From IMG/VR virus record IMGVR_UViG_3300028412_000003: 64,000 bases of DNA; one strand, 5' to 3'. Position 1 is the first letter of the stretch, and the number at the start of each line of letters is the position of its first letter. Of this stretch, positions 33,933 to 62,958 are shown one piece after another. Made by a program: the position numbers and the translations under genes. The notes under the pieces are model-generated. The model saw only the letters and a list, made by a program, of their open reading frames with translations. It had not been told where the DNA came from and searched no databases. The stretch comes from a virus. Lineage: Duplodnaviria > Caudoviricetes.

Positions 33933-34802
33933 TCATGTTCCCCATGCGTTTCCGAAGACTTCGACATGGAGCCTTGGGGTATATCTCCAACCTTCTTGCA
34001 TCGCAATTTCAACGATTCTATCTTTATTGAGATAATATTCTTCACTTCTTCCACCCAGCGGCATAAGGTAGACAGGACAATTAATACCGGCTTTGCGGTA
34101 AGCATCAACAGCACGACGAACATCTTCCACATCATCGTCATTAGCGACAACAAACTTAAAATACATGTCGCTATTAGGAACATCAAAGTATTGACGAGCA
34201 ATATCAGGCTGTATTGCAGCATTCCAAGATTCGCCGCTAACTGTGAGCTTAGGCGAACATGAGAACGTAATTCGTATGTGGTCTTGATATCCGAAGAACT
34301 CTTTAAGATTTGATTGAAGATGTTGTGTAGTGTTAGTCTCGAAAGTAACATTTTTTAGATCCTTCATGTTAGGATGGTTAAACAACTCAACATACAATTT
34401 TTGCCAACCAAGCAAAGGTTCACCGCCTGTTAAAATAAAATGTATATCTTGTCCATTATCTAAAGACCATTTGCCGGTTGGAGTTAATTTCAATAAATTA
34501 TCAACTACGTCGTTTACTGTTTCATTTTTCATAAAACGTTTAAATTCAGGATAGATACTAGCATAAGTGTCACATCCTGTGTGTATAATCGGAAGGTCTT
34601 CAAATTTTTCATATTGGTCAATACCATTCTCTAGAAGTTGTTCTACTTCTGGATTATATTTTCCAACTTCTTGATCTTTAGGAAGACCAAATTTCTTGCA
34701 TCGAAAATTGCAACCAAAAGTTCGAAGAAATACACTAGGCACTCCAACAAACTTACCTTCACCTTGTATAGAATAAAATGCTTCGCTATATCTTAATTTC
34801 AT
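33933..34802 (-). CDS. queE: 7-carboxy-7-deazaguanine synthase QueE (radical SAM)
   Basis: YSEAFYSIQGEG..GVPSVFLRTFGCNFRC, CDT, LTGGEPL, FETN, SPKL, PRLH; adjacent to folE; start at 34802 by ATGA overlap. Confidence 0.85.
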   Translation of the reverse strand: MKLRYSEAFYSIQGEGKFVGVPSVFLRTFGCNFRCKKFGLPKDQEVGKYNPEVEQLLENGIDQYEKFEDLPIIHTGCDTYASIYPEFKRFMKNETVNDVVDNLLKLTPTGKWSLDNGQDIHFILTGGEPLLGWQKLYVELFNHPNMKDLKNVTFETNTTQHLQSNLKEFFGYQDHIRITFSCSPKLTVSGESWNAAIQPDIARQYFDVPNSDMYFKFVVANDDDVEDVRRAVDAYRKAGINCPVYLMPLGGRSEEYYLNKDRIVEIAMQEGWRYTPRLHVEVFGNAWGT

Positions 34803-35485
34803 CTTGGTGCCCACTGTTGTTGTAGTTTGATGTTATCAAAGAATTCTTGCTTTGTGGCAGGATCATGTTTAAATGCACCTTTTAGCACAGTAGTCTGTGT
34901 CAAACTAGAATGTGCCATTATGCCTCTGTTTTCGCAACATCCGTGAGTTGCTTGTATGTAAACTCCGACATCATTGCTGCCTGTTGCAGAAATTATTTCT
35001 TTTGCAATATCATTACATAATTCTTCTTGTAATGTACCACGTCTTGCACACCATTGTGCAATTCTTGTATATTTGCTGAGTCCTATCAATGTTTCTGCAG
35101 CAATAATTCCAATGTAAGCAACACCTGTAACAGGTTGATGGTGATGCGAGCAAACTGATTTAATTTCACTTCGCACCACCAACATTCCTGTATAACCATC
35201 TTCGACTTCGTTTGGGAACGAAGTTGCATCTGGCATTGGATAATATCTTCCACGCATTAATTCGTGTATATACATTTTCGCTAGTCTTCTACCTGTGTCC
35301 TTGCTATTAGGATCATTTAATCGATCTATAACAAGCGAGTCAAGCACTGCTTCAAATTTTTCTGTGAGCTCGTCAGTTAATTCTTCTAGCTCACCTTCTT
35401 GAATATGTTGGCTGATATTATCTCCAGCCCAATATGTATTACCTTCTTTTAAAATTCTATTCTTAATAATATTAGAGATAGTCAA
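34799..35485 (-). CDS. folE: GTP cyclohydrolase I
   Basis: SVCSHHHQP, GLSKYTRIA, LQEEL, HGCCENRG; TTG start. Confidence 0.92.
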   Translation of the reverse strand: MTISNIIKNRILKEGNTYWAGDNISQHIQEGELEELTDELTEKFEAVLDSLVIDRLNDPNSKDTGRRLAKMYIHELMRGRYYPMPDATSFPNEVEDGYTGMLVVRSEIKSVCSHHHQPVTGVAYIGIIAAETLIGLSKYTRIAQWCARRGTLQEELCNDIAKEIISATGSNDVGVYIQATHGCCENRGIMAHSSLTQTTVLKGAFKHDPATKQEFFDNIKLQQQWAPR

Positions 35486-35537
35486 TAAATTTCCTTTCCG
35501 AGTTATTAAAGACGAGGATGTCTTGTAAGTATATTTT

Positions 35538-35565
35538 ATTATACACTTTATTTAGGTTTTGTCAA
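35538..35565 (-). promoter_or_regulatory. Sigma70-type promoter for folE-queE
   Basis: TTGACA-16-TATAAT on the - strand. Confidence 0.65.
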
Positions 35566-35568
35566 GAA

Positions 35569-35820
35569 TTAACCGTCAAACCTACTATCTTTTACTTGTT
35601 GTTCAGCCCATGCCTTTTCTTCGGGAGCAACAGTGTTAAATTCAATTACCCGAAATCTTTTCCAAATAGCACCTGCTTCTTTTGCTTCCTGTTCGGAATT
35701 GTAAGTAACAACAATTCTATCACCTACAATACCATTTGGATGTTCGGTTGTTACATAAATCCAATCATCATGGCCTTCTTCATCCTTACTAAACGGTATT
35801 TGTATTGAATATACTTTCAT
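35569..35820 (-). CDS. Hypothetical protein
   Basis: 83-aa ORF. Confidence 0.5.
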   Translation of the reverse strand: MKVYSIQIPFSKDEEGHDDWIYVTTEHPNGIVGDRIVVTYNSEQEAKEAGAIWKRFRVIEFNTVAPEEKAWAEQQVKDSRFDG

Positions 35821-36317
35821 TATTCAGACTCCCAAGGATAAACTAACCAAACGTTTTCTTCGTTCTTATCAATCTCTTCAAATACATAATTAACAGAACC
35901 AAATCCACTTGATATGTTATCGGTCATTACTGCAAAACGAACGTTTCCACCCCATATAGTTCCATCGGTCCATTTACCGTCAAGTGGACAACACGAAGAA
36001 TTCCAATCTTTTTGTATCCATTCAAAAGTAGCACCTTTATCGTTTATGTCATCTACTATAAGTATTTTTTTTCCATTAAACGCATCTTCTGCCATCCAAA
36101 GATTTGATTCAACGTCGTCTGGATTACTTCTAAGGCTAACATTAAGAGTGTGACACGGAATTTGGATAATATGAGACAACATAACTGCGAGTGTAAGTCC
36201 ACCCCTTGTTATACCAACAATATAATCAGGTTTCCATTCATCTCGTAACATTTGTTTGAGAAAAGTGTTACAAGCATCGTCAACGTCGTTCCAGTCATAA
36301 TATTGTTTATTTTTCAC
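35820..36317 (-). CDS. Purine phosphoribosyltransferase (Gpt/Hpt-like type I PRTase)
   Basis: IVGITRGGL, PRPP-binding ILIVDDINDKGAT, C-terminal WLVYPWE; probable GTG start at 36317. Confidence 0.8.
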   Translation of the reverse strand: MKNKQYYDWNDVDDACNTFLKQMLRDEWKPDYIVGITRGGLTLAVMLSHIIQIPCHTLNVSLRSNPDDVESNLWMAEDAFNGKKILIVDDINDKGATFEWIQKDWNSSCCPLDGKWTDGTIWGGNVRFAVMTDNISSGFGSVNYVFEEIDKNEENVWLVYPWESE

Positions 36318-36636
36318 CTTTGATAATCTCCAATGTTTCGTATTTGTTTTTAATTTCAACATACCGAGTACCTGCTCTTTTAAGTTCGGGGTACTTTTCT
36401 TCCATTACAAGATCTCTTTCAACTATTAATAGTCGTTCTTGCAAATTGCGTATAGCTTCATCTACGTTTTCTATATTTGCTGTAGATAGATATGATGAAA
36501 AGAGTACATCAGCGTCTATTCTATCACATCTTATATTACCATTAATTCTCACTTCTGGAATAGAATCAAAGTTATTACGAATAGTATCAGATATTTTTGT
36601 TCCCGAACTTGCTATTGGATTAATTGTTAATCCCAT
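36307..36636 (-). CDS. Hypothetical protein
   Basis: 109-aa ORF. Confidence 0.5.
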   Translation of the reverse strand: MGLTINPIASSGTKISDTIRNNFDSIPEVRINGNIRCDRIDADVLFSSYLSTANIENVDEAIRNLQERLLIVERDLVMEEKYPELKRAGTRYVEIKNKYETLEIIKGEK

Positions 36637-36950
36637 TATATTTCACCTCTGTCTTTTCTTCCATCGTAATCATCTTTTGACATCATATACAATAATTTAA
36701 ATTTTTCATATTGAGAAGCTAATGGAGGATAATGTTCACACATTTCTTTTATCTTTTCGAGTGGAGGCATATAATTTTCAAAATCTATTTCCTTTTCATC
36801 TATACCTGTTTTTATAGTATAAATGATATCAGATGTGTTTATTTTATTGATCGTCATACTAGGCTGATAGTACATATTAAAATCGGTATAATAATTTAAA
36901 TCTGTACTTATATTGAAAACCGTGTCATAGTTCTTATCGCTCGAATTCAT
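36636..36950 (-). CDS. Hypothetical protein
   Basis: 104-aa ORF. Confidence 0.5.
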   Translation of the reverse strand: MNSSDKNYDTVFNISTDLNYYTDFNMYYQPSMTINKINTSDIIYTIKTGIDEKEIDFENYMPPLEKIKEMCEHYPPLASQYEKFKLLYMMSKDDYDGRKDRGEI

Positions 36951-38028
36951 TTATTACCTCGTAAATTCTATCTCCATTAAAGAATTCTTGCTCTAACATC
37001 CTACATTGAATTGCAATTTTAGGAATGTATGTAGAATAATTCTCTATATATTCTTTAATTTGATTTTTAATCAGTTCTTGATTTTCTATATAATTGTCAA
37101 AACTAGAAGTCCAATTAGAAGGATATTTAAAATCATATATTGCCATTTCAGTGTATGAAAGACGATTTGGTACCATTGGAATACAATTAACTTGAAGTCC
37201 TTCATACCAACTTATGCCTAGTGTTTCTTGTAGGTTAGCAGAAAAAACTATTTTAGCTCTTCCTAAGAGATTATAATATTCGTTCTTTGTAAGAGTTTGA
37301 TCTTGACAAACAATAAACTCATATTCTGGCATATGCTGTTTGAGATCACGAAAGATCTCAACTTGTTTTTCGGGTGCAATGCGATGGGGGAAAAGAATTA
37401 AATTTTCTTTTGGCATTCCTTTATATTGTGTTAATGATCCTGATAGATATTCCATCGGCCATCCTGCACGAACAATAGTGTCATTTGCTAATTTAGGATC
37501 AGTTATATCCCATCCTTTACCATTATCCCATCCAAATATTCCATTAGAAAACATTTGGATATGGTAATCGGTTGCAAAGAAGTTATGATCGTAACTGCTG
37601 AACATTGAATGTTCAGCAGAACGAATCCAGGGTTGGTCACCAATTAATCGACCAAGGAAATCTTGTGGATCATAACTTCCTGCATGCCACATCCCACCAA
37701 TTTTAATGTGTATTCCTAGCAAGGAAGCCATATACTTTAATTGTATAACGGTTGGATTCCATGCATCAGTGTACAAGAAATAATCATTATTCTTTATTTG
37801 ACCATTACAAAACAATTCACCAATTTGCATTAACTGATTGCTTTTGTAGATATTAGTTCCGCCAAAGTTTAAAAAGGCACCTGGCGTTGTAGATTGAGGA
37901 ACATCTCCTCCAGAGATTACAACTACTTCTTCAGTTGTTCTCTTTTGTATTTGCTTTGGAAGATACTCTTTCCATTGTTTAGTATAGCGATTATCAACCG
38001 CCTCAATATCTACAATATAAATGGTCAT
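36934..38028 (-). CDS. GT-B fold glycosyltransferase (GT4-like)
   Basis: FPHRIAPEKQ (R..K donor site) and ETLGISWYE (EX7E). Confidence 0.75.
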   Translation of the reverse strand: MTIYIVDIEAVDNRYTKQWKEYLPKQIQKRTTEEVVVISGGDVPQSTTPGAFLNFGGTNIYKSNQLMQIGELFCNGQIKNNDYFLYTDAWNPTVIQLKYMASLLGIHIKIGGMWHAGSYDPQDFLGRLIGDQPWIRSAEHSMFSSYDHNFFATDYHIQMFSNGIFGWDNGKGWDITDPKLANDTIVRAGWPMEYLSGSLTQYKGMPKENLILFPHRIAPEKQVEIFRDLKQHMPEYEFIVCQDQTLTKNEYYNLLGRAKIVFSANLQETLGISWYEGLQVNCIPMVPNRLSYTEMAIYDFKYPSNWTSSFDNYIENQELIKNQIKEYIENYSTYIPKIAIQCRMLEQEFFNGDRIYEVINEFER

Positions 38029-38213
38029 CTCTTGTACCTATTATCTCTTGTTTGCCGTGGTCTACCTTTGCTTCTAGTATAAACCTGGTATGCTCTCCAA
38101 CTATCACTAGAATTCTTATAAAGATCTGCCTCATTAAAAACCTTGCCATTAAAACGACAATAATCTCGGAATTGATCTAAATCATCAAATATCCGTTCGA
38201 GTTCAATTTTCAT
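38025..38213 (-). CDS. Small hypothetical protein
   Basis: MKIELERIFDDLDQFRDYCRF; start moved to 38213. Confidence 0.5.
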   Translation of the reverse strand: MKIELERIFDDLDQFRDYCRFNGKVFNEADLYKNSSDSWRAYQVYTRSKGRPRQTRDNRYKR

Positions 38214-38637
38214 TCTCATCCTTTCTTGGATAAAATAGTGTGGCACCATTTTCGCCGTCTTCTGCTACTTCTATTTCTACAAAGCGACCGGGGTACCTTT
38301 TATTAATTTGCTTATATAAATCATCTGCTATCATTTCGCAAGACCTATGATTTAATTCAAGTTTTTCTTGATATAATGATTCTAACCAACGCTTAAATTG
38401 TATAAATTCAATATCTCTATCGTTGTGAAACACTTCAATTCGAACACGAAAATGAAATAAATGTCTATGTTCGTATCCTAAGAAACTAACATCATATTCA
38501 TCTCCGGTCGCAAGAGCAGCATTAGTGTCTGCTCCGGGATAAAAATGTATTCCTTCTTTCCTAAAAGTAATCCAAATACTTCTTATTGGATCTAAGTTAT
38601 TCTTTTCTGGTTCTTTATTAAACCAATAATTCTTCAT
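38203..38637 (-). CDS. dpdL: QueD-paralog T-fold protein (DpdL-like, putative CDG decarboxylase)
   Basis: FLGYEHRHLF fits the LxxxHRHxF signature I recall for DpdL; RDIEFIQFK, SCEMIA; lies in a deazaguanine locus. The symbol is tentative. Confidence 0.6.
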   Translation of the reverse strand: MKNYWFNKEPEKNNLDPIRSIWITFRKEGIHFYPGADTNAALATGDEYDVSFLGYEHRHLFHFRVRIEVFHNDRDIEFIQFKRWLESLYQEKLELNHRSCEMIADDLYKQINKRYPGRFVEIEVAEDGENGATLFYPRKDENEN

Positions 38638-39170
38638 TATGATATTATCTCGTCTTTTGTATATTTTGACCAGTCTGTAAATACTCGTCTGTCTTGTAAA
38701 TCATGGATTGGATGAACCCATACGCCTGGATTTGATTTACGAAAGTCACTGTCATCTATTTTTAGGCAGGCGTTATAATTTAATGATTTAATGTTTGGTA
38801 TCTTTACACTTATGAGAGGAATAAAACGATCATACTCTCCCCAACAAAACTCAGTTACAAACTCGTGATATTTAATATCATAATCGAGTGTAAACCACAT
38901 TTCACTCTTTGATAGCTCTTTCATTAAATTAGTCCAATATTTTATTTCTTCGTCTGTACCATTTGGTAAAGTAGGATTAAACGATTGATTAGCCCCAAGA
39001 TAAATGTGTTCACAACCTTTTATTCTAGCATATTCTAATATATCTTCTGCTAGTGGTTTCTTAGTAAGAAACAATGTTTTCATTCCATAAGCAGGAGTAT
39101 GTTCTACTTCAACACCTATAAAAGTGGAAACATCATTAGAAGTTACGTTTCCTGAGTATTGTCTTTCCAT
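38637..39170 (-). CDS. Uncharacterised protein in the deazaguanine locus
   Basis: 177-aa ORF coupled between the TGT-like and DpdL-like genes. Confidence 0.6.
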   Translation of the reverse strand: MERQYSGNVTSNDVSTFIGVEVEHTPAYGMKTLFLTKKPLAEDILEYARIKGCEHIYLGANQSFNPTLPNGTDEEIKYWTNLMKELSKSEMWFTLDYDIKYHEFVTEFCWGEYDRFIPLISVKIPNIKSLNYNACLKIDDSDFRKSNPGVWVHPIHDLQDRRVFTDWSKYTKDEIIS

Positions 39171-39337
39171 TGTAATTCTTTCTCTACTTTAAATAATTCA
39201 TCTTTTATTGCTAATTTTTTGATTTTAAGTTTGCTTATTTCTTCTGTAGGCAGTTTATTATTATAAGCGTCTTTCACTTGTTTGTCAAGAATATTATGTT
39301 TTTCAGTTAATGATTCTATACGATTAGTCAAGGTCAT
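39143..39337 (-). CDS. Small coiled-coil protein (DUF465-like)
   Basis: LTEKHNILDKQV..LKIKKLAIKDEL. Confidence 0.55.
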   Translation of the reverse strand: MTLTNRIESLTEKHNILDKQVKDAYNNKLPTEEISKLKIKKLAIKDELFKVEKELQWKDNTQET

Positions 39338-40922
39338 TCTCTAATTTCTCCAATAACTCTTCATTTTCTTCTGTGAAGGTTTCTTCTTGTGTAACAGTTT
39401 CTTCTTCTTCAAAAAGACTATGAAAAAATGTTGTTGAGTTAATGGTCTTCTTACCAATTGCACCTCGTGTACCAGGAATATCCATCCAATATGCACGATG
39501 CTCTTCAACTAACGCTTCTGCCTTTTCTCTGTCGTCTGTAGCAAAAATATCTTCAACTATATCACGAAAAAATTCTCTCTTATAAGTTCGAAACTTCTTT
39601 CCGTGTAATTTCGAAGCAATTAGCATATGTGGAAATGTACCAGAATCACACATTCTATTAGCTTCCTGTACTGCATTGATATGAGACCAAACATTATGTC
39701 CCATTTGTATAGCATATGAAAAGCTGTCCCAAGAAGTTCTTCCTTCTTTACCTATTTTATTTAGGTCTCCCGGCTTATAGATACACACGTCTGATACCCC
39801 TAATCCATCTGTTATAGGAGAATCAACGAAGTCTCTAGTTATTAATACATTGCCGGCTGAATCTTTCTTATCAAAAATACCATCTTGTAAAACAGTATCA
39901 CGAAATCCACGAGGATCAGTTGCATATTTTTTGTTATCAATACTTGGTAACATTCGATATGTCCATTTACCCATAGGTTCTGTTTCAGTCTGTAAATAAA
40001 TTTGTCCATTAGCAGTAGCTAAGAAAGGACTTGCACAATCAAATGTTATTGTATAATTTTCATTATGATGTTTTCGAACTGCACGCTGTATATCTGTTAA
40101 CAAACATGCCCATTCTAATTTTGAAGTACCCAAAAAGTGCATAAAATCATGAACACCCTTTTCTAAATATCCATCAAAACGAAGTGCAATCAAACGCTTT
40201 AACACAAGGTGGACATCACACATATTTTGTCCACCCATTGACCATCCTTCAAAATGTTCATTTGGATATTTCTTTGGATCACAAAAATCACGCATCTGAA
40301 AATACCAATCGTCGGCTTCTTGAAATGTTTCACCCTGCAGAACGTTTAGAAATTTACAATTACCATTTCTATTCTTAATAAAATAATCATTATTAATTCT
40401 AGTAGCGTCAACTGCTCCTTGATATGAATTAATACCTGTTGCCGCTGCACCTGCAGGTGAACGAGCTACCCAGGCCGGAATATCTAATATCATTCCGTAA
40501 TCCATATATTTGTCCATCCAACTAAGAACATCTGTTCTTTTCTTCATTGCTTTAGGACAACTTGGATCCTTCCAATTGCCTTCCCACACTCCCTTACCAA
40601 TCTGGAAACCACCACTGTCACCAAGTACCCAAGAATTTTCACGATCTCTATTTCGGATCATATCTTCTTTAGGTGAATCCTTATTAACATCTAATTCAGC
40701 ATGTCCTGCTGAATAAAGTGACCATTTGTAATGAAATGCTCCTTCTTTTTTATTTAGGTAATTGAGACTTTCAACTCCGTTGTTAAAATTAGAAGGTATA
40801 CGAGTCTTATCTACATATTCACCAAAGCGTTGTTTACCTACATAAGTGGCATAGAAACCACTTAATGCAGGAAGAAAAAACGCATAATCGTTTTGTGTTG
40901 AGGTTAAATCTCTGTTAATCAT
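39324..40922 (-). CDS. dpdA: TGT-superfamily transglycosylase, DpdA-like (deazaguanine insertion)
   Basis: LGDSGGFQ (TGT catalytic Asp motif), NVLQG, GWSMGG, HFLG, TFDCASP; clustered with folE/queE. Confidence 0.78.
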   Translation of the reverse strand: MINRDLTSTQNDYAFFLPALSGFYATYVGKQRFGEYVDKTRIPSNFNNGVESLNYLNKKEGAFHYKWSLYSAGHAELDVNKDSPKEDMIRNRDRENSWVLGDSGGFQIGKGVWEGNWKDPSCPKAMKKRTDVLSWMDKYMDYGMILDIPAWVARSPAGAAATGINSYQGAVDATRINNDYFIKNRNGNCKFLNVLQGETFQEADDWYFQMRDFCDPKKYPNEHFEGWSMGGQNMCDVHLVLKRLIALRFDGYLEKGVHDFMHFLGTSKLEWACLLTDIQRAVRKHHNENYTITFDCASPFLATANGQIYLQTETEPMGKWTYRMLPSIDNKKYATDPRGFRDTVLQDGIFDKKDSAGNVLITRDFVDSPITDGLGVSDVCIYKPGDLNKIGKEGRTSWDSFSYAIQMGHNVWSHINAVQEANRMCDSGTFPHMLIASKLHGKKFRTYKREFFRDIVEDIFATDDREKAEALVEEHRAYWMDIPGTRGAIGKKTINSTTFFHSLFEEEETVTQEETFTEENEELLEKLENDLD

Positions 40923-41650
40923 TTAGCCTGCGCTGGAAGAATATAATCGTATGTAGCTAATCCGCTATCAACAGATATCTTCATTGCGCCCTGATCTGAT
41001 AATCTCATAGTTATCTTACCATCTAAGCTAAGTATAGCAAGGGTTTGAGCAACAGGCCAAGACCATGTGTGCTTTAATTCACCTGTTATATTACTTTGAA
41101 AAATAAATTTTCCTGCATGTGATGATTCATCACCAAATGTCATTACTAATGCACCGTCTTCGGTTTTAACATTAACTATTAATTCATCTGGATTTCCAGC
41201 AGCCTGTAACTTCATTCTTCTTATAGAATCAATAGCGGGTTCAAGTTCAACGTTCCATGTTGCTCCCTTAAACTTCACATTCTTTAATTTTTCTTCAATG
41301 TGAGCTTGATTCATAAATCTATAATCATTTTCAAAATCACCATTTGAATTCTCAAAATGAATATGTGTATTGATAGTTTCTCCCTTTCGAACATCAGTCT
41401 TAATTTCAAGAACACTATCTTTTTCGTATTCTGGATTTTTTAGATGAAAAGCCAGAAGTCCTAAGTTTGGCATGCCAAACGTACCAATAAATTCATCAAC
41501 CTTATTTTTAGTTGCAGCCATTAGTATAACTGTTCTATCTTCAGACATAGTTTCAATTTTAGTCTTGTCTTCTTCGTTTGTCACCTTAACTAGGGATAAG
41601 AACCCCAATGAATGTGTATGCGCTATAATATCTTTAAGTATATCTTTCAT
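40919..41650 (-). CDS. DNA polymerase sliding clamp (gp45/PCNA-like)
   Basis: 243 aa, directly after polB, C-terminal SGLATYDYILPAQ; start moved to MKDILKD (GGAG RBS). Confidence 0.7.
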   Translation of the reverse strand: MKDILKDIIAHTHSLGFLSLVKVTNEEDKTKIETMSEDRTVILMAATKNKVDEFIGTFGMPNLGLLAFHLKNPEYEKDSVLEIKTDVRKGETINTHIHFENSNGDFENDYRFMNQAHIEEKLKNVKFKGATWNVELEPAIDSIRRMKLQAAGNPDELIVNVKTEDGALVMTFGDESSHAGKFIFQSNITGELKHTWSWPVAQTLAILSLDGKITMRLSDQGAMKISVDSGLATYDYILPAQAK

Positions 41651-41718: not shown

Positions 41719-44385
41719 TTAATCTCCAAAATCAAATAAACTTCCAAATGTTGTGTCTTGTTTTGTAGATTCGATGTCATAATTCAAGACACCTATTAAG
41801 TTATCAATTTTATTATCAATGATAGTATTTTCCATTGCTCTGTCATCAAAAGGTAAATCCTTAAACCATTGCGGTAAGCGTAGTTCGTCTGTTGGAAATG
41901 CAACACTTGTAAATCCTAATGGATTTGGCCTTAGTTTACAAACGATAACTTTCATTCCATCAACTATGTCTTGGCTGTAACGATCACTATTCATTCTTTT
42001 TAAAGTATTCCAATTAAGTGATGCACGAACGTGTCCTGGCATATTTGCCTTTCCTTTTTCTTCTTCTAAATCTCGAAATTTACTTAGGTTGTTAACACGT
42101 TTGGGAGTTCCTTTTTCCCAACCAGGCCGTTCCTTAAATAGACTACGAAAATCTTCAATCTTTTTTAAAATTTCGTTTTCGTCTTTTGTTGTTAAAACCA
42201 TAAGTAGAATATCCTTAAGGAAGTCTTGCATAAAAACCGGAGTATCTGATCGCCGCAAATCTAATCCCATTGCTTTAACCTTACCAATTTGACCGTCTAT
42301 ATCTTTTCTGTTACCGTCGTCGTCAATTACTAGGGCAGCATATCTTTTCTTAGTAATATACAATCCACTCTGTGCAACAATTTCTCTACCTGCTGCAATA
42401 ACACCTGAGCGAGATTTAGGACAATGATATGCATCAGCCATAAATCTAGTAAATGATTTATTTGTTTCTTCTGCTACTTGATCATATAACTGAATTATAC
42501 GTTCCTTTTCCCAAGGAATAGTACCATTGTCTATTTCGTCTTTTAGTATAGGATAAGCACTAAAATAAACAGAATCGGTATCACCGTATATAACAGCCTT
42601 ACCAACGTGGTCATATTCTCCTGTTATTACTTCGTTTGCCTTTGCACTCATATGTTGAACAATTCCTCTACCAGTAAGTGTAGTTGATTGACCAATTCTT
42701 TTATCAAAGAACCTACAACCTGGATTTAAGATAGCACCATATAAGCTATTCAAATTAATCTTCTTAACAAGCTGACGCTTGTCCCAAAAGGCTATTTCGG
42801 TTTTATTGTTGGCATCAATTGCCTTTTTTAATTTTGCTTGTAATTCTTTACGTTCTGAATACCAACGTTTTAGAAGTCCAGGAATGACAGCTTCGAATTC
42901 ATTTGTAAAAATAGTACCATTAGCACTAATCATCCAAGGATTGTTACTATTGAATATAAGTTCGTAGGTTTCTGCACCGCTAAGTACATCAACATCTCCG
43001 TTCTCCCAATCGATGGTAATATCTTTACCTCTATTTTTTTCTATCATATGTTTGTATTCAATAGAACTAAACAATCCTTCCCATGCTCCTGCAAAAGACT
43101 TCTTCTCAAAAGTCATCTTTTCTTTTATATAAGCATCGGTATCGGTTGGTCGTAATTGGCCAACTACTGCTTCCGGAGCCATATTCAATGCACGAATAAC
43201 AGATGGATATAGTGAATTTAAATCCATTGATGCTAACCACATATGCAAGCCTTTCTTTGGATAAGCAACATATGCTCCGGCTGCACTTGAATTCTCTCGG
43301 TCAACAACTGGACGATTAGGAACTACCATTCCTCTATCATGTGCTTCGTTTATGATAGCCTGTTCGGTAACTGCAACTGCTCCCATAGTAGTTTGCAATA
43401 AAACAGTATTAGAATGAGCTAGTTCGTTTGACAAATCAATAAAGCGAAGTTTACGATCAAGTTTATCAAGCAACGAAGTATCTTGTCTGTTATATTCAAT
43501 AAACTTTTTAAAGTCATTATTATATAATTGATCAAGTGTTCCTTCGTATACTGTTTTGTTTTCACCTATTTCAATTTCACCAATAGCATCCAACCGATAA
43601 GAATGTCTTTCTTCATAATTATATTTACGATACAATTCTAAACTATCGAGATGAACTCTGCCAATTAAATCAAATGTTACTGCTTCTTTACCGTATTTTT
43701 CATAGAGTCGTTTCTTTGGAAGTTGATCCCATAAACAAAATCTTCTAGTATCATTCTTACTTAATACTCTTGCAACACGGTTAACTGTATACGGAATATC
43801 ATATCCTTCACTATTCCAACCAGTTAACATATCGGCATCTTCTATTAGATCAAGAAATGCAGATAACATTTCACCTTCGTCACTGTAGAGATAGGTATTA
43901 GGAAAATCTTTAACTTGCTCTTCTGCATCTTTCATACTAAGCCCCTTTGGAGGCATAGCAAGGGTGACTAGTGTATCCATCCATTGTAAACAAACACTAA
44001 TAGCAGTGATTGGCATAAATGGATCACTTGGCTGAGCAAATCCTTTTTCTGGATCAAAGTCAGTCTCAATATCAAAAAATGCAATATTAAGTTCTGGTGC
44101 ATCTGCAGTGAGGTAATTCTCACTTAAACATTGAAAAATAGGATTAATGTCGCTTTCAAATAAAGTTTTGCTTTTATTGATCGCTACTTCTTTTCTAAAT
44201 TCCTTTGTATTTTTACAAACTATTCTTGTTACTGGATCACCGTAAACACTTCGTTGTTTACCAGCTGGATCCTTATAATAGAATGTATATTTAATAGGAT
44301 ATTCTTTAAATATCCTCTTGCCTTCTTTACGTTCAACGACACGAATAATATCCGCATCTCTATCAAACATTGCATCAATGTACAT
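41719..44385 (-). CDS. polB: Family B DNA polymerase
   Basis: ExoI FFDIETD, motif A DLNSLYPS, motif B KINLNSLYG, motif C YGDTDS, KKRYA; no intein visible. Confidence 0.95.
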   Translation of the reverse strand: MYIDAMFDRDADIIRVVERKEGKRIFKEYPIKYTFYYKDPAGKQRSVYGDPVTRIVCKNTKEFRKEVAINKSKTLFESDINPIFQCLSENYLTADAPELNIAFFDIETDFDPEKGFAQPSDPFMPITAISVCLQWMDTLVTLAMPPKGLSMKDAEEQVKDFPNTYLYSDEGEMLSAFLDLIEDADMLTGWNSEGYDIPYTVNRVARVLSKNDTRRFCLWDQLPKKRLYEKYGKEAVTFDLIGRVHLDSLELYRKYNYEERHSYRLDAIGEIEIGENKTVYEGTLDQLYNNDFKKFIEYNRQDTSLLDKLDRKLRFIDLSNELAHSNTVLLQTTMGAVAVTEQAIINEAHDRGMVVPNRPVVDRENSSAAGAYVAYPKKGLHMWLASMDLNSLYPSVIRALNMAPEAVVGQLRPTDTDAYIKEKMTFEKKSFAGAWEGLFSSIEYKHMIEKNRGKDITIDWENGDVDVLSGAETYELIFNSNNPWMISANGTIFTNEFEAVIPGLLKRWYSERKELQAKLKKAIDANNKTEIAFWDKRQLVKKINLNSLYGAILNPGCRFFDKRIGQSTTLTGRGIVQHMSAKANEVITGEYDHVGKAVIYGDTDSVYFSAYPILKDEIDNGTIPWEKERIIQLYDQVAEETNKSFTRFMADAYHCPKSRSGVIAAGREIVAQSGLYITKKRYAALVIDDDGNRKDIDGQIGKVKAMGLDLRRSDTPVFMQDFLKDILLMVLTTKDENEILKKIEDFRSLFKERPGWEKGTPKRVNNLSKFRDLEEEKGKANMPGHVRASLNWNTLKRMNSDRYSQDIVDGMKVIVCKLRPNPLGFTSVAFPTDELRLPQWFKDLPFDDRAMENTIIDNKIDNLIGVLNYDIESTKQDTTFGSLFDFGD

Positions 44386-57115: not shown

Positions 57116-57146
57116 TATATGGGGTGGGTTAATCCCACCCCATATA
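57116..57146. terminator. Perfect 13-bp hairpin between the convergent phoH and sufT genes
   Basis: TATATGGGGTGGG-TTAAT-CCCACCCCATATA. Confidence 0.65.
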
Positions 57147-57431
57147 CATTCTAGTTTCTTCGGGAACCATGTCAATAGTAAACGGTGGTTCAAATGTGAG
57201 ATCTATTTCACACGAGGTTGCTCCGGTGTCTTGCATACCTGCTTCTTTTATCATTTCCATAATAAATTCAGCAAAAGGACACATTGGACTAGTTAGTGTA
57301 TGAGTGATCTTTAAGACGTCATCGTTTGTTTCAATATTATATATTAATCCAAGATCGTAAACATTAACAGTTGGCATTTCAGGATCATAAACTTCACGAA
57401 GATTAGATATTACCTTTTCAACATCTATCAT
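57129..57431 (-). CDS. sufT: SufT/PaaD-like (DUF59/MIP18) Fe-S maturation protein
   Basis: VYDPE..VNVYDLGLIY, TLTSPMCP, LTFEPP. Confidence 0.85.
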   Translation of the reverse strand: MIDVEKVISNLREVYDPEMPTVNVYDLGLIYNIETNDDVLKITHTLTSPMCPFAEFIMEMIKEAGMQDTGATSCEIDLTFEPPFTIDMVPEETRMYMGWD

Positions 57432-58294
57432 ACTGCCATCTCTGCATTTATAGCCGAATGATGTTGATAATTTTCTAATTTAAAATCAGATGGAGTTAAT
57501 TTCAATACATCTTCTAATGTTTCAAATTCTGGCATTATGAGTTTAGGTTCTTTGTATGGTTGCCGCGATAATTGTTCGTCAACTGCATCAAGATGGTTTT
57601 GATATATATGAACATCTCCACCATTCCATATAAATTCTCCTACAGTAAATCCTGCAATCTTTGCTATGATATGGGTAAGCAAACTGTAACTAGCGATGTT
57701 AAAAGGAACACCTAAAAACAGATCACAAGACCTTTGGTATAATTGACACGAAAGTTCGTTGTCTAATACATGAAACTGGAATAAACAATGACAAGGAGGT
57801 AATGCCATTAAATCAATTTGATCCGGGTTCCAAGAAGAAACAATGTGTCTTCTACTATTTGGAGCAAGTTCAAGCGAATCAAGAAGTTTTGAAATTTGAT
57901 CTACATGTCCCAACTTTGCATCCCAGTTTCTCCATTGACTACCATATACTGGCCCAAGGTTCTTATCTATATCATTATTGATATAACCAAGTGCTCTTCC
58001 TTGAGCATCTGCATTTGCAGTCCATATAGTATTCTTACCTATTAATTCACCTCTTGGTTTTCCATAGTGTATTTCAGCTAACCTACGTTCATCAGTAGAA
58101 CCTTCAAGCATCCATAATAGTTCGCTTACAACACTCTTCCACGCTAATTTTTTAGTCGTAACTGCTGGGAATGTTTCTCGCAAATCAAATCTCATTTGAT
58201 AACCAAAAACTGTTTTAGCCGGTATATCCGTTCTATTACTTCTCCATTTACCGTTGTCTCTTACATATTCTAAAGCCTTAAGATATTCTATCAT
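57428..58294 (-). CDS. thyA: Thymidylate synthase
   Basis: ELLWML, LGPVYGSQWR, ALPPCH, YQRSCD, GVPFNIASY; start at 58294 by ATGA overlap. Confidence 0.95.
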   Translation of the reverse strand: MIEYLKALEYVRDNGKWRSNRTDIPAKTVFGYQMRFDLRETFPAVTTKKLAWKSVVSELLWMLEGSTDERRLAEIHYGKPRGELIGKNTIWTANADAQGRALGYINNDIDKNLGPVYGSQWRNWDAKLGHVDQISKLLDSLELAPNSRRHIVSSWNPDQIDLMALPPCHCLFQFHVLDNELSCQLYQRSCDLFLGVPFNIASYSLLTHIIAKIAGFTVGEFIWNGGDVHIYQNHLDAVDEQLSRQPYKEPKLIMPEFETLEDVLKLTPSDFKLENYQHHSAINAEMAV

Positions 58295-58773
58295 ATTTTC
58301 TTTTTCTCCCATATTTCAAACGATGCAGTCCTAACATCAGTTATTAATATTTTATTGAAATTTTTATCTATTATATTTAAATCAATAAAAGTATCAGCAT
58401 CAAATTCACCAGGTATACGAGTTAGATAAAGTTGAGATATAACCGGTAATAGATTTTCAAATAAATGTGATCCTCCTATTACCCATATAATAAGATTTGG
58501 AAATTCTTCTTCCAAGTTCTTTATTTCTTCTAACAAGTTTTTACCAATTACTCTAAATGCACCCTCATATATTTCTGGAGATTTTTTAGAAACTACTACA
58601 TTCTTTCGATTTGGTAGAGGAGAACCAAGCCAAGTTTTAGACCCCATAACTACAATGTGTCCGGTTGTTTGGTCCTTAAACCAAGACATGTCTTCTTTAT
58701 TCTTTGGCCACGGTAAACTTTTATTTAGACCAATAGCACCTTTGTCATCACATGCTAGTATAGCTTTAATCAT
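58291..58773 (-). CDS. folA: Dihydrofolate reductase
   Basis: AIG..SLPW, VVMGSKTW, PLPNRKN, VIGG, ADTF. Confidence 0.9.
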   Translation of the reverse strand: MIKAILACDDKGAIGLNKSLPWPKNKEDMSWFKDQTTGHIVVMGSKTWLGSPLPNRKNVVVSKKSPEIYEGAFRVIGKNLLEEIKNLEEEFPNLIIWVIGGSHLFENLLPVISQLYLTRIPGEFDADTFIDLNIIDKNFNKILITDVRTASFEIWEKKKI

Positions 58774-59687: not shown

Positions 59688-59938
59688 TTAGATAATAAAT
59701 CTCCTACATGGTATAGTCTGCTCATTTCATCCACACAAACATAGATAGCTCCACTACTTTCGTCTACTGGAATTAACATAAATTGATAACCATTTTCTTC
59801 ACAAACAGTTACAGATGCCTCGTATCTTAATTTTGATTTTTCAATATTATTAGGAATAAGAAGGAACACTGTATAAATTGCTACTAAAAAGAATGCAGAT
59901 GAGAATATACACATAAATATGTTTTCCGGTCTCATCAT
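59684..59938 (-). CDS. Small membrane-anchored hypothetical protein
   Basis: N-terminal hydrophobic segment. Confidence 0.5.
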   Translation of the reverse strand: MMRPENIFMCIFSSAFFLVAIYTVFLLIPNNIEKSKLRYEASVTVCEENGYQFMLIPVDESSGAIYVCVDEMSRLYHVGDLLSK

Positions 59939-60468
59939 TTTTGTTCCATAGTCTGATAAGCTATCTGTACTGCTTTGGCTTGATAGTATGCATCTGCTAG
60001 TGCATTGTGTTCATTGGTTTGGATACCCTTGCGCGGATCAATTCCCAATACTTTAAAAAGTGTTCTACTATCTAAAATTTGCCAAAATTGCCATGGAATG
60101 GGTTTTCCTACCATACGATACATATCTTCAAGAATAGTCATATCAAATCCATATCCTTGCCCCCAAATAGTATTAGATCCCCATATCCATTTAGTAAGTT
60201 GATCAAGCCCGTCTTCTACGGTAACACGTCCATCAGGGTCAAATGCAGCAGCTTGTGCTTCTGGAGATTGTTTTGCCCACCATTCAATAGTGTCATCACT
60301 TACACTTCGTCCTAAATCACTTTGTTGATCAATATCAAACTTTAAGTAAAGTTCGCTGTGTGGCTCTTCAAGAGAGTTTGGATCAAATTTTACAGCACCT
60401 AATGTAAGAACGGTGCAATTTGGTTTGGTATCTAATGTTTCAAGGTCAATCATTGCGTGTTGCGGCAT
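59935..60468 (-). CDS. DEDDh 3'-5' exonuclease
   Basis: MIDLETL, GYGFDMTIL, HNALADA. Confidence 0.8.
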   Translation of the reverse strand: MPQHAMIDLETLDTKPNCTVLTLGAVKFDPNSLEEPHSELYLKFDIDQQSDLGRSVSDDTIEWWAKQSPEAQAAAFDPDGRVTVEDGLDQLTKWIWGSNTIWGQGYGFDMTILEDMYRMVGKPIPWQFWQILDSRTLFKVLGIDPRKGIQTNEHNALADAYYQAKAVQIAYQTMEQK

Positions 60469-60666: not shown

Positions 60667-61197
60667 TCAAGTGATTAGATTTAGGTCTTTTAATTTTTCA
60701 AATATTTTATGTGGTGCGTTTACATCACCGTCTACTGTTTCATATGACAAGTTTCTTGTCTTAAGAAATTCTATTAAATCTTGATCAATCTTTCGAGCAC
60801 CATCTTCGTTTTGGTTTCTTCCAATCGGATTATATTTCTTAGTTCGGTTAATTAAGAAATTTGTATTTTCGTATTGATTCCAAAGTTCCATTAATAAGGG
60901 CTCATACGTGTCTGAAAGATATCCGGGAAGAGCATAATGTACACCTAACAGCAAAGGACTATCGGTAATTACTAAATCCATATTATGATTTAACAGTCGA
61001 GAGAGCCTTCGGTTCTGTTTTGCCGTAACATAAATTTGGTCGTTTAATATATTATGACGACCTTCCCAAGTCATGTCTTTAGCATATTCGGTTACTAATT
61101 CTACATTATAATCATTAGTCTTAAGTAAATAGAAAAGACCAGACGCAGTAGTAGATTTTCCAGCACCTGGTCCAGCCCAAAGATTAATAACTTTCAT
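60667..61197 (-). CDS. P-loop NTPase/kinase (AAA_28/NadR-like)
   Basis: GPGAGKST, VTEYAK, ITDSPL, GRNQ. Confidence 0.7.
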   Translation of the reverse strand: MKVINLWAGPGAGKSTTASGLFYLLKTNDYNVELVTEYAKDMTWEGRHNILNDQIYVTAKQNRRLSRLLNHNMDLVITDSPLLLGVHYALPGYLSDTYEPLLMELWNQYENTNFLINRTKKYNPIGRNQNEDGARKIDQDLIEFLKTRNLSYETVDGDVNAPHKIFEKLKDLNLIT

Positions 61198-61880: not shown

Positions 61881-62290
61881 TCTGAATCTCCATGATATTT
61901 ACTGACCATATTTGTATATAAATCAGTCATTGGTTGCACACTTAAAATTTCTTTTGCTAATATTTCTGGATTATAAAGTGCTAACCTACGTTGACATGAG
62001 TCAAGATACTGATCATATGATAATCCAAGAAGTGCAAGATGACTATGATATTTTTTCCAGTCTTCACGCAGTCTATATTTAGCAAGTGACGAGTCTCGAA
62101 GTTCAGCATTGAGATACCATTCTCCGGGACTCATTGGTATTGTTATAAAATGATTTTCACTTAATGAGGCTTTTATATTTTCAAAAGCCTGCCATTCTTT
62201 AGAGGTCGCCCTCTTTTCGATTTTCACTTCGGTAGATGTCGAAGGTTCCGCCTGGATACCGGCTTTCAAGTTTCTTGACATTTTCTGCAA
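61877..62290 (-). CDS. Hypothetical protein (true start uncertain, possibly 62134)
   Basis: The long form overlaps the MazG-like gene by 92 nt. Confidence 0.4.
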   Translation of the reverse strand: MQKMSRNLKAGIQAEPSTSTEVKIEKRATSKEWQAFENIKASLSENHFITIPMSPGEWYLNAELRDSSLAKYRLREDWKKYHSHLALLGLSYDQYLDSCQRRLALYNPEILAKEILSVQPMTDLYTNMVSKYHGDSE

Positions 62291-62606
62291 TTACTTCATT
62301 AGGATCAAGGTTAAGTGCTCGACAAGAATTAATCCAGTACCAAATAATATCGCCCAACTCTCTTTTAAGATGGTAGACAGTTGCGTCATCCATAGGCTTA
62401 CCTTGAAATGCACACTTTTTAACAATTTCACTGAATTCTCCTCCTTCACTAGCGATACCGCTAGAACCTGTTAACAATAAAGCTATATTAACAGTTTTAT
62501 CGAGTTCCTGCAACCTGGTTGTTAATGATTCTAAATTATTAGATTCATTTGAAGTTACTTCTTCTACAAATTCTTTATACCTGTTTAAATCTATTTTATC
62601 AGTCAT
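62199..62606 (-). CDS. MazG-like NTP pyrophosphohydrolase
   Basis: EGGEFSEIVKK..ELGDIIWY (ExxE..ExxD), NVKKLESRYP; start moved to MTDKID. Confidence 0.8.
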   Translation of the reverse strand: MTDKIDLNRYKEFVEEVTSNESNNLESLTTRLQELDKTVNIALLLTGSSGIASEGGEFSEIVKKCAFQGKPMDDATVYHLKRELGDIIWYWINSCRALNLDPNEVIAENVKKLESRYPGGTFDIYRSENRKEGDL

Positions 62607-62958
62607 AATCAATGGCCTTAGTTGGGTAGTCAGTTGGTTTTTCTTCACTTGTGCTTGCAAGCATTATCGACTTAGCTTCTACCATTCTTAATGTAATTTT
62701 AGAGCCGTCTTCTTCATTAAACACTACTCCTCGAGTCCACCTACCGTGTTCTACAAGAACCCAATTACCAACTTGGTATTCGTCTTTGTTAGTGGGTCCT
62801 TTTGCATAAACCTTACCCCAACGTGGTTTTATTCCTTCGCTTTTACCGTCGTCTGAACGAAGTACAAGTCCTGATTTGGTTATTTGCTCACCAAATTCCA
62901 TGTCTTGAACGATAACTCTGTCTTTAACAGGTCTTAGTCTTCCTGTAAATTTCTGCAT
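62599..62958 (-). CDS. groES: GroES-like co-chaperonin
   Basis: LRPVKDRVIV, TKSGLVL, GKVYAKGP, VGNWV; start moved to MQKFTG. Confidence 0.8.
   Translation of the reverse strand: MQKFTGRLRPVKDRVIVQDMEFGEQITKSGLVLRSDDGKSEGIKPRWGKVYAKGPTNKDEYQVGNWVLVEHGRWTRGVVFNEEDGSKITLRMVEAKSIMLASTSEEKPTDYPTKAIDYD

Follow-up and report, generated by a model that had tools for sequence, protein, structure and literature searches.

A QueC-less DpdL-type locus with a conserved glycosyltransferase partner in an aquatic jumbo phage: a candidate route to a sugar-decorated 7-deazaguanine in DNA

The minus strand of IMG/VR record IMGVR_UViG_3300028412_000003, a 64,000-nt stretch of phage DNA from lake-water metagenomes (hereafter the window), carries at positions 33933–41650 a compact gene array that is extended by a family B DNA polymerase gene (PolB) to position 44385. 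The array belongs to an uncultured, abundant jumbo phage of aquatic origin, whose relatives include Pseudomonas phage PA5oct and Sinorhizobium phage Phosso. We have little doubt that this array is a deazaguanine DNA-modification module, and we consider it reasonably probable that it is a QueC-less module of the DpdL type with an added glycosylation step, for which a glycosyltransferase of the GT4 type (hereafter GT) would be responsible. That the GT belongs to the deazaguanine pathway is itself probable, whereas the chance that the base in DNA is glycosylated falls slightly short of even. What is new is that a DpdL-type system occurs together with a GT4 partner and a phosphoribosyltransferase (PRTase), both of them conserved, as well as with a 177-aa orphan protein and a separate subfamily of DpdA-like transglycosylases.

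The main evidence comes from the linkage between the GT and DpdL. Among 50,697 phage records, DpdL-like genes were found in 29 and GT homologs in 23, with both present in 18 (18/23 of the GT carriers and 18/29 of the DpdL carriers); a hypergeometric test per record gives P ~1e-57 for this co-occurrence, and P remains at ~1e-13 or lower with conservative lineage counts. The GT lies beside or near DpdL in about six cultured lineages (the PA5oct group, Phosso, ACP17, X1/BUDD, BCSR5 and BUCT-ZZ01), being directly adjacent to it in ACP17 and BUCT-ZZ01 and within 1–3 kb of it in PA5oct, Phosso, X1 and BCSR5. Because the pairing holds with two different transglycosylase (DpdA) families across these lineages, DpdL and the GT behave as a unit. 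The array is also syntenic in 80 IMG/VR loci, as far as the respective contigs extend, with the order PolB–clamp–DpdA–177aa–DpdL–small ORF–GT–(small ORFs)–PRTase–FolE–QueE–exonuclease, and this synteny together with the co-occurrence shows that the array is more than a chance assembly. The GT and the DpdA-like protein are each represented by at least 8000 metagenomic clusters (90% identity level) at 65–82% identity, on contigs of up to 374 kb, and the GT family comprises 1202 clusters at 50% identity. The original prediction, made from the letters of the window alone, had staked itself on the GT and the PRTase accompanying dpdA, folE and queE in relatives, and both do so even in distant ones.

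Gene array and the branch at 7-carboxy-7-deazaguanine

According to the ORF calls, the whole array lies on the minus strand and is tightly packed, with overlaps of 1–56 nt between most neighbouring genes and a single intergenic gap of 83 nt ahead of folE. On an identical contig from an ENA metagenome, the genes called independently are the same (e.g., a clamp of 243 aa and a QueE of 289 aa) and, like the ORFs themselves, reproduce the gene order that had originally been read. In the direction of transcription, the features are:

41719–44385, minus: family B DNA polymerase (PolB), context at the head of the array (PF00136, 1.4e-35; PF03104, 4.4e-18)
40919–41650, minus: PCNA/gp45-like sliding clamp (Atlas structure match, TM 0.73–0.75; phrog_12062)
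39324–40922, minus: divergent transglycosylase of 532 aa, similar to tRNA-guanine transglycosylase (TGT) and DpdA (DSGGFQ motif; hhalign to DpdA3; Atlas)
39260–39288, minus: perfect sigma-70 consensus TTGACA-17-TATAAT upstream of the 177-aa gene (12/12 match)
39143–39337, minus: small coiled-coil DUF465 protein (PF04325, E 2.5e-7, 31 bits against a cut-off of 25)
38637–39170, minus: 177-aa orphan (conserved E, H, N and D residues, resembling those of an enzyme)
38203–38637, minus: DpdL, a QueD-paralog T-fold protein of 144 aa (LGYEHRHLF; phrog_17812, 1.8e-33)
38025–38249, minus: small ORF of 62–74 aa between DpdL and the GT (no family match in Pfam or PHROG)
36934–38028, minus: GT4-like retaining glycosyltransferase (GT), GT-B fold, 364 aa (AlphaFold2 model, EX7E)
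36636–36950, minus: small ORF of 104 aa (no family match)
36307–36636, minus: small ORF of 109 aa (no family match)
35820–36362, minus: Gpt-like type I purine PRTase (PF00156, 9.5e-14)
35569–35820, minus: small ORF of 83 aa (ORF only)
35538–35565, minus: perfect sigma-70 consensus TTGACA-16-TATAAT in the sole gap, upstream of folE (12/12 match)
34799–35485, minus: GTP cyclohydrolase I, FolE (PF01227, 6.8e-38; NCBIfam FolE, 8.9e-40)
33933–34802, minus: divergent QueE, the radical-SAM synthase of 7-carboxy-7-deazaguanine (CDG) (NCBIfam QueE models, best 6.5e-13, below cut-off)

Single-sequence searches of Pfam, PHROG, NCBIfam and PDB were empty for the DpdA-like protein, the GT, DpdL and the 177-aa protein, except for two uncharacterized PHROGs. 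The product of the gene upstream of the GT contains LGYEHRHLF in place of the CxxxHGH motif of QueD. This is an exact fit to LxxxHRHxF, the signature of DpdL, which has been proposed to act as a CDG decarboxylase (PMC10516641); the original prediction had named both the signature and the link to decarboxylation of CDG to 7-deazaguanine, and the publication contains them both. By tblastn, the window protein is 34% identical to the DpdL of Cellulophaga phage phiST (CGPG_00067) over 81% of the query (E 6e-9). Overall identities range from 34–38% for phiST to 53–70% for ACP17, PA5oct and Phosso, and a hidden Markov model (HMM) of the DpdL lineage matches the phiST DpdL at 8e-21. All 17 family-invariant columns, common with phiST DpdL, are present in the window protein. 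The family alignment has an invariant Ser-Cys-Glu (S99-C100-E101 in window numbering) along with H31, H71, R74 and E77; the DpdLs of PA5oct and Ahp1 read HFH where others have HRH. The catalytic Cys position of 6-pyruvoyltetrahydropterin synthase (PTPS) and QueD is missing from DpdL.

The genomic context of DpdL agrees with this assignment, since FolE, QueE and the DpdA-like protein are encoded in the locus, QueD occurs elsewhere in relatives and QueC is missing. Six-frame searches of the window found no QueC, QueF or Gat (phmmer with phage proteins) and no canonical QueD (an HMM of nine phage QueDs, against which DpdL itself scored E 0.025), in keeping with what had originally been noted for the window. 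Both PA5oct and Phosso have a canonical QueD elsewhere in the genome, and no QueC was found in either genome. Among five long IMG/VR relatives, each about 30–56% complete, two have a canonical QueD 50–65 kb from the locus and none has a QueC above the cut-off. The QueD that had been noted as missing is thus truly absent from the window but most likely lies just outside it, and CDG synthesis in the window phage is probably complete. Since QueC is found neither in the window nor in the genomes of relatives, the simplest reading is that the pathway stops or branches at CDG/7-deazaguanine, which upholds the branch point put forward originally. The 177-aa protein was also considered as a QueD substitute and set aside, given the canonical QueD elsewhere in relatives and a structure model without a T-fold.

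The five best NCBIfam matches of the divergent QueE are all QueE models, none of which is reached above its cut-off (best 48.9 bits against cut-offs of 200–300), and its score against Pfam Radical_SAM is 22 bits against a cut-off of 29.5. The C31, C35, C77 triad (C-x3-C-xn-C-D) and the TGGEP motif are invariant in seven phage QueEs, the insert being variable.

At the head of the array, PolB is syntenic with its counterparts in PA5oct, Phosso and Vibrio phage 2.275.O. The sliding clamp has no sequence match in Pfam or PDB, and its profile searched against PDB was also empty; its stop codon overlaps the start of the DpdA-like gene by 4 nt. The 532-aa DpdA-like protein has no match in Pfam or NCBIfam at E 0.01/0.1 (including PF01702, TGT, and PF23859, DpdA), nor a PDB sequence match even when searched as a family profile. 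Its family alignment keeps the motifs DSGGFQ, LDIP, GWSMGG, HFLG and FDCASP invariant, so that both a DSGG[FL]Q motif and a downstream [FY]D-x-[AST] Asp motif are present in the barrel, as in the TGT/DpdA superfamily; we take these motifs to be the equivalents of the TGT catalytic residues. Alignment by hhalign to phage DpdA3 gave a probability of 89% (E 2.4e-6, 217 columns) with the motifs aligned, and in the Atlas the protein matches viral TGT/DpdA clusters (feature score 0.93/0.89, TM 0.82 by target). Because the HMM of DpdA3 (phiST CGPG_00065 and ACP17 gp123) and that of the DpdA-like family do not cross-match in either direction, the 532-aa protein is best treated as a putative separate DpdA-like subfamily, distinct from DpdA3. 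From the genomic context and the restriction resistance of PA5oct DNA (see below), it is predicted to exchange guanine for a deazaguanine base in DNA.

The position next to PolB and the clamp appears to accommodate different pathways. For example, Vibrio phage 2.275.O (locus L009, 7905–14931) has in the same PolB–clamp slot a DpdA-like homolog of 596 aa with an insert of ~90 aa, followed by genes for an amidoligase-like protein, QueF, a YhhQ-type transporter, QueC, an amidotransferase (Gat) and FolE. Thus, the same replisome slot would host a different deazaguanine pathway in this phage, putatively of the preQ1 or G+ type.

The PRTase domain is recognized by PF00156 (51 bits against a cut-off of 26), and the acidic-hydrophobic loop for phosphoribosyl pyrophosphate (PRPP) is visible in the translation. 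Its best NCBIfam match is a xanthine PRTase (5.6e-9, below cut-off), and it falls short of an equivalog-level match to xanthine-guanine PRTase (NF006613, 35.7 bits against a cut-off of 138). Within the phage collection, its homologs are nearly confined to phages with full G replacement or DpdL carriers. The former include the phiST group, Flavobacterium phage immuto and Campylobacter phages CP220, CPt10 and CP21, in which G is known to be fully replaced by a 7-deazaguanine, and the latter are represented by BUCT-ZZ01. The PRTase gene adjoins folE or queE in BUCT-ZZ01, CP220 and Brevundimonas phage StAshley, and in StAshley it is joined by ribonucleotide reductase (RNR), a dNMP kinase and FolE. 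In PA5oct, the similarity of the PRTase-like gp163 is weak (E 5e-9), and no counterpart was found in the ACP17 locus. Two readings fit the PRTase: it might return released guanine to GTP for FolE, or phosphoribosylate a deazapurine as in tubercidin biosynthesis.

Both sigma-70 sites are consensus matches only, on the coding strand; their location inside the array suggests that the base-synthesis genes could be expressed early by the host polymerase. As for the small ORFs, the one between DpdL and the GT has homologs at 37–67% identity in the close lineage only, the 104-aa and 109-aa ORFs vary in presence among relatives, and the 83-aa ORF has no counterpart in relatives at E 1e-5.

The glycosyltransferase and the 177-aa orphan

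The single sequence of the GT has no Pfam match, including Glycos_transf_1 and Glyco_trans_4. Its AlphaFold2 model is of high confidence (predicted local distance difference test, pLDDT, 94) and displays a GT-B fold, with Z scores of 24–26, 300–320 aligned residues and an rmsd of ~3 A to sucrose-phosphate synthase (SPS), BshA and MshA in VIA. Foldseek likewise points to SPS, BshA and MshA (E 3e-9), and the neighbours at Z 21–26 comprise SPS, BshA, MshA, GlgM, LmbT and tetrahydrobiopterin glucosyltransferase (BGluT). The family profile searched against PDB matches the glycosyltransferase 8xsg at 6.5e-5 in the C-terminal domain only. Over 52 homologs, E276 is invariant and E268, R216 and K221 are nearly so, giving the spacing E268-x7-E276; we take the EX7E motif and the R216/K221 pair to be the catalytic residues and those binding the diphosphate of a nucleoside diphosphate (NDP)-sugar, as in GT4 enzymes generally. 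Given this conservation, the GT very probably is active as an NDP-sugar transferase.

The contexts of GT homologs, cultured and metagenomic, are as follows:

PA5oct, Phosso, X1, BUDD and BCSR5: GT and DpdL a few genes apart
ACP17: gp122 (177-aa homolog), gp123 (DpdA3), gp124 (GT), gp125 (DpdL), gp126 (QueE)
BUCT-ZZ01: QueE–PRTase–x–QueD–FolE–GT4–DpdA3–DpdL–GT
Three of the four divergent metagenomic contexts sampled (L104, L105 and L106): DpdL directly upstream of the GT
The fourth divergent metagenomic context (L107/L108): GT with a second canonical GT4, PRTase, NUDIX and a PurT-like ATP-grasp enzyme

In the last of these, the pairing of PRTase with NUDIX resembles a tubercidin-type logic. A distant GT homolog (24% identity) was also found in Xanthomonas phage PhiXhv-15 (locus L102, 4738–7972), beside GlmS and a BshB-like GlcNAc-malate deacetylase; no DpdL match was detected in the genome of this phage. 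Its context hints at a HexNAc donor for the GT family, or else at a separate glyco-modification. Taken with the structural neighbours, the GlmS and BshB-like genes suggest UDP-HexNAc or UDP-Glc as the candidate donor of the window GT.

The 177-aa orphan is widespread, with 2091 metagenomic clusters and the invariant residues E21, E23, H55, N61, D96, D139 and D140. Its homolog in ACP17 (gp122, E 2.5e-24) is located beside DpdA3, GT and DpdL. The AlphaFold2 model (pLDDT 84) yielded no significant fold: the best Foldseek match in PDB has E 0.04, the AlphaFold database returned only the protein's own family, and the best Z across VIA was 6.4, which is at noise level. Within the same noise, the structure search listed crystal structures of the QueEs of B. 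subtilis, E. coli and B. multivorans at Z 5.3–5.5 over 122–126 residues, a faint lead that catches the eye because QueE is encoded in the same module.

Known systems, proposed pathway and rival explanations

The best-characterized system of this kind is that of phiST, the DNA of which contains 100% 2'-deoxy-7-deazaguanosine (dDG) and which encodes FolE, QueD, QueE, DpdL and DpdA3 (Cui/Hutinet et al., NAR 2023, PMC10516641). Similar to the window, phiST combines a QueC-less CDG route with a DpdL of the LxxxHRHxF type, a transglycosylase of the TGT superfamily and a Gpt-like PRTase. However, neither a GT homolog nor a 177-aa protein is encoded by phiST. The phiST DpdA3 has a length of just 259 aa and shows no more than a remote relationship to the 532-aa protein of the window, and the QueE of phiST belongs to the other type, the one lacking the insert.

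For the module as a whole, the nearest cultured counterpart is gp162–gp168 of PA5oct (genus Wroclawvirus), which has the syntenic order PolB–clamp–DpdA-like (37% identity)–GT (42%)–DpdL (63%)–...–QueE (32%)–exonuclease. QueC is missing and QueD is encoded elsewhere. Unlike in the window, FolE lies outside the cluster, the PRTase-like gp163 is only weakly similar, and the position of the 177-aa orphan is occupied by gp164, a short epimerase-family protein. This 172-aa protein (locus L002, 12425–12943) matches the NAD-dependent epimerase/dehydratase family PF01370 at 6e-7, above the cut-off, and a possible role for it is a sugar-nucleotide tailoring step next to the GT. PA5oct virion DNA resists cleavage at G-containing restriction sites and was reported from the restriction patterns to contain a 'modified G', the assignment to G being based on its QueE and a PTPS gene; moreover, PA5oct is a target of END nucleases, which sense hypermodified DNA and are reported to act on hypermodified phages only (PMC12191111). 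In Acidovorax phage ACP17 and cyanophage BUCT-ZZ01, the GT is next to DpdL, ACP17 sharing the 177-aa homolog with the window and BUCT-ZZ01 sharing the PRTase next to QueE. Both differ from the window in having DpdA3 instead of the DpdA-like protein and a canonical QueD inside the module, and BUCT-ZZ01 additionally has a second GT4.

Further parallels exist outside the DpdL systems. HuiG, a GT4 enzyme using UDP-GlcNAc, glycosylates the free 7-deazapurine base in the huimycin pathway, and tubercidin clusters combine CDG synthesis with PRTase, decarboxylase and Nudix genes and lack QueC (bioRxiv 10.64898/2026.04.15.718813). By their described chemistry, these pathways are precedents for a GT4 acting on a 7-deazapurine and for a QueC-less CDG route. 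In contrast to the window, they belong to actinomycete secondary-metabolite clusters without DpdA, and the tubercidin decarboxylase is of the UbiD type, not a T-fold protein. The alpha- and beta-glucosyltransferases of phage T4 resemble the window GT as GT-B enzymes encoded beside a phage base-replacement pathway, so that the sugar plausibly would serve as a second anti-restriction layer, as in T4. The T4 enzymes glucosylate the hydroxymethyl group of a pyrimidine, 5-hydroxymethylcytosine. All of the 50 best structural matches of the window GT are of the GT4/GT5 type, and the T4 enzymes do not feature there.

The gene identities, the absence of QueC and the co-occurrence described above are what the sequences show; from them we deduce the following route, in which each reaction, the sequence of reactions and the atom that would accept the sugar are inferred. 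By the established pathway, FolE, a QueD encoded elsewhere and the divergent QueE would produce CDG, from which DpdL would strip the carboxyl group to yield 7-deazaguanine, as the DNA of phiST suggests. The DpdA-like protein, translationally coupled to the clamp, would then swap G for this base in DNA. The PRTase would either return the released guanine to GMP and further to GTP for FolE, or activate the deazapurine with PRPP. Finally, the GT4 would add a sugar to deazaguanine; the acceptor would be the free base or nucleotide, as for HuiG, or DNA, and the end product would be a glycosylated 7-deazaguanine instead of plain dDG. A broader proposal is that the DpdL–GT4 pair makes a sugar-decorated 7-deazaguanine, which replaces guanine, in a highly abundant group of aquatic jumbo phages and in cultured phages of Pseudomonas, Acidovorax, Xanthomonas, Burkholderia, Sinorhizobium and Synechococcus, in part at the nucleotide level by a PRTase-based, tubercidin-like pre-replicative route; we offer it tentatively and give it clearly less than an even chance.

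Several observations weigh against the proposed route. The structures nearest to the GT all belong to enzymes with small-molecule acceptors, not DNA, and 7-deazaguanine has no hydroxyl group, the candidate acceptor atoms being N2, C7 or the carboxyl of CDG. With DpdL and without a GT, phiST reaches 100% dDG, and the phiST group, RHph_I1_18, Ahp1 and others have DpdL but not this GT. The DpdLs of RHph_I1_18 and Ahp1 are 46–57% identical to that of the window and yet GT-less; because these phages carry such close DpdLs, the GT is to be seen as accessory and not obligatory. We also considered that the presence of a GT might define a DpdL subclade and rejected this, as the GT-less DpdLs of the two phages are as close to the window DpdL as the GT-linked ones. 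In addition, the QueD of the window phage's own genome is deduced from relatives only. Lastly, DpdL and DpdA of phiST and ACP17 gave no dDG when co-expressed in E. coli, and the authors noted that further enzymes may be required (PMC10516641).

Plain dDG would be a straightforward outcome if the GT were off-pathway or auxiliary and acted on a soluble intermediate (for transport or protection), on a protein, or in the synthesis of a soluble deazapurine or pterin glycoside. The full phiST set (DpdL, FolE, QueD, QueE, DpdA3 and PRTase without a GT), the GT-less close DpdLs of RHph_I1_18 and Ahp1, and the small-molecule acceptors of BshA, MshA, SPS, LmbT and BGluT are consistent with this explanation, but a repeated tight adjacency of DpdL and GT in unrelated phage families with two DpdA types is hard to account for without a shared substrate, and the recognition of PA5oct DNA by END nucleases, reported for hypermodified DNA only (PMC12191111), also argues against it. 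We regard plain dDG as unlikely, if the strongest of the rivals. A pre-replicative, tubercidin-like synthesis appears a little less likely still. According to it, the PRTase would couple CDG or 7-deazaguanine to PRPP, DpdL would decarboxylate the base or the nucleotide, kinases and RNR would lead on to deaza-dGTP, MazG would clear dGTP and PolB would incorporate the analogue, leaving the DpdA-like protein merely to mop up residual G or to recycle bases; a GT step at the nucleotide level is compatible with this scheme. It would explain why PRTase homologs are nearly confined to full-replacement or DpdL phages, beside FolE/QueE, and why that of StAshley is accompanied by RNR, a dNMP kinase and FolE. 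MazG and a P-loop kinase flank DpdL in phiST, and the window also encodes MazG (62199–62660) and an AAA_28 kinase-like protein (60667–61197), but this pair lies ~20 kb from the locus. The composition of tubercidin clusters and the ADG nucleoside reported in CP220-infected cells (cited in PMC10516641) point in the same direction. On the other hand, DpdA occurs in every known deazaguanine phage and the field reads this as post-replicative exchange (PMC10516641), Gpt-like recycling of the guanine released by exchange accounts for the same co-occurrence, and the PRTase is weakly conserved in PA5oct and undetected in the ACP17 locus.

Very improbable, in our estimation, is a pathway that bypasses DNA altogether, in which FolE, a PTPS-like T-fold protein and a GT4 would make a pterin glycoside, such as the tetrahydrobiopterin glucoside of cyanobacteria, or the TGT-like protein would act on tRNA. 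Enzymes of the TGT superfamily classically act on tRNA, and the structure search with the GT does list tetrahydrobiopterin glucosyltransferases (Z 21); BGluT, however, ranks well under BshA, MshA and SPS. We set both readings aside: the module never lacks a QueE with the invariant radical-SAM triad, DpdL lacks the PTPS/QueD Cys position, the transglycosylase gene is coupled to clamp and PolB, and PA5oct DNA itself resists restriction at G sites (PMC12191111).

Significance and other genes of the window

Modifications with 7-deazaguanine derivatives are a major phage counter-defence, and eight such derivatives are known in DNA. To our knowledge, none of the eight is glycosylated, nor is any glycosylated purine known in DNA. 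If the proposed pathway with a glycosylation step is true, the final DNA base of the window phage may be new and possibly sugar-decorated, and would then be the first glycosylated purine-type base in DNA. Our literature search found no paper linking a GT or a PRTase to phage deazaguanine DNA; PMC10516641 mentions neither a glycosyltransferase nor a phosphoribosyltransferase, and the DpdL–GT4 pairing is absent from it too. The pairing marks thousands of metagenomic clusters and several cultured phages, among them PA5oct, a phage already tried against P. aeruginosa in models of airway infection. For ACP17, the GT partner may explain why dDG was not reconstituted from DpdL and DpdA alone. Finally, the distribution of the PRTase reopens the question of pre- versus post-replicative synthesis for complete G replacement.

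Elsewhere in the window, the plus strand between positions 78 and 25629 carries a radical-SAM island that is unusually large for a phage: 12 of its 26 consecutive ORFs match Radical_SAM (best 2.8e-18), three also match SPASM, and two Asp/Asn beta-hydroxylases and one fatty-acid desaturase are present as well. On the other side of the modification locus, an Fe-S assembly protein is encoded at 57129–57431, and genes for ThyA, dihydrofolate reductase (DHFR) and an Rv2179c-like exoribonuclease are located within 57428–58773 and 59935–60468; an Rv2179c-like gene also comes after the GT in BUCT-ZZ01. The AAA_28 kinase-like protein (60667–61197) shares 52% identity with a Phosso protein that carries the annotation thymidylate kinase.

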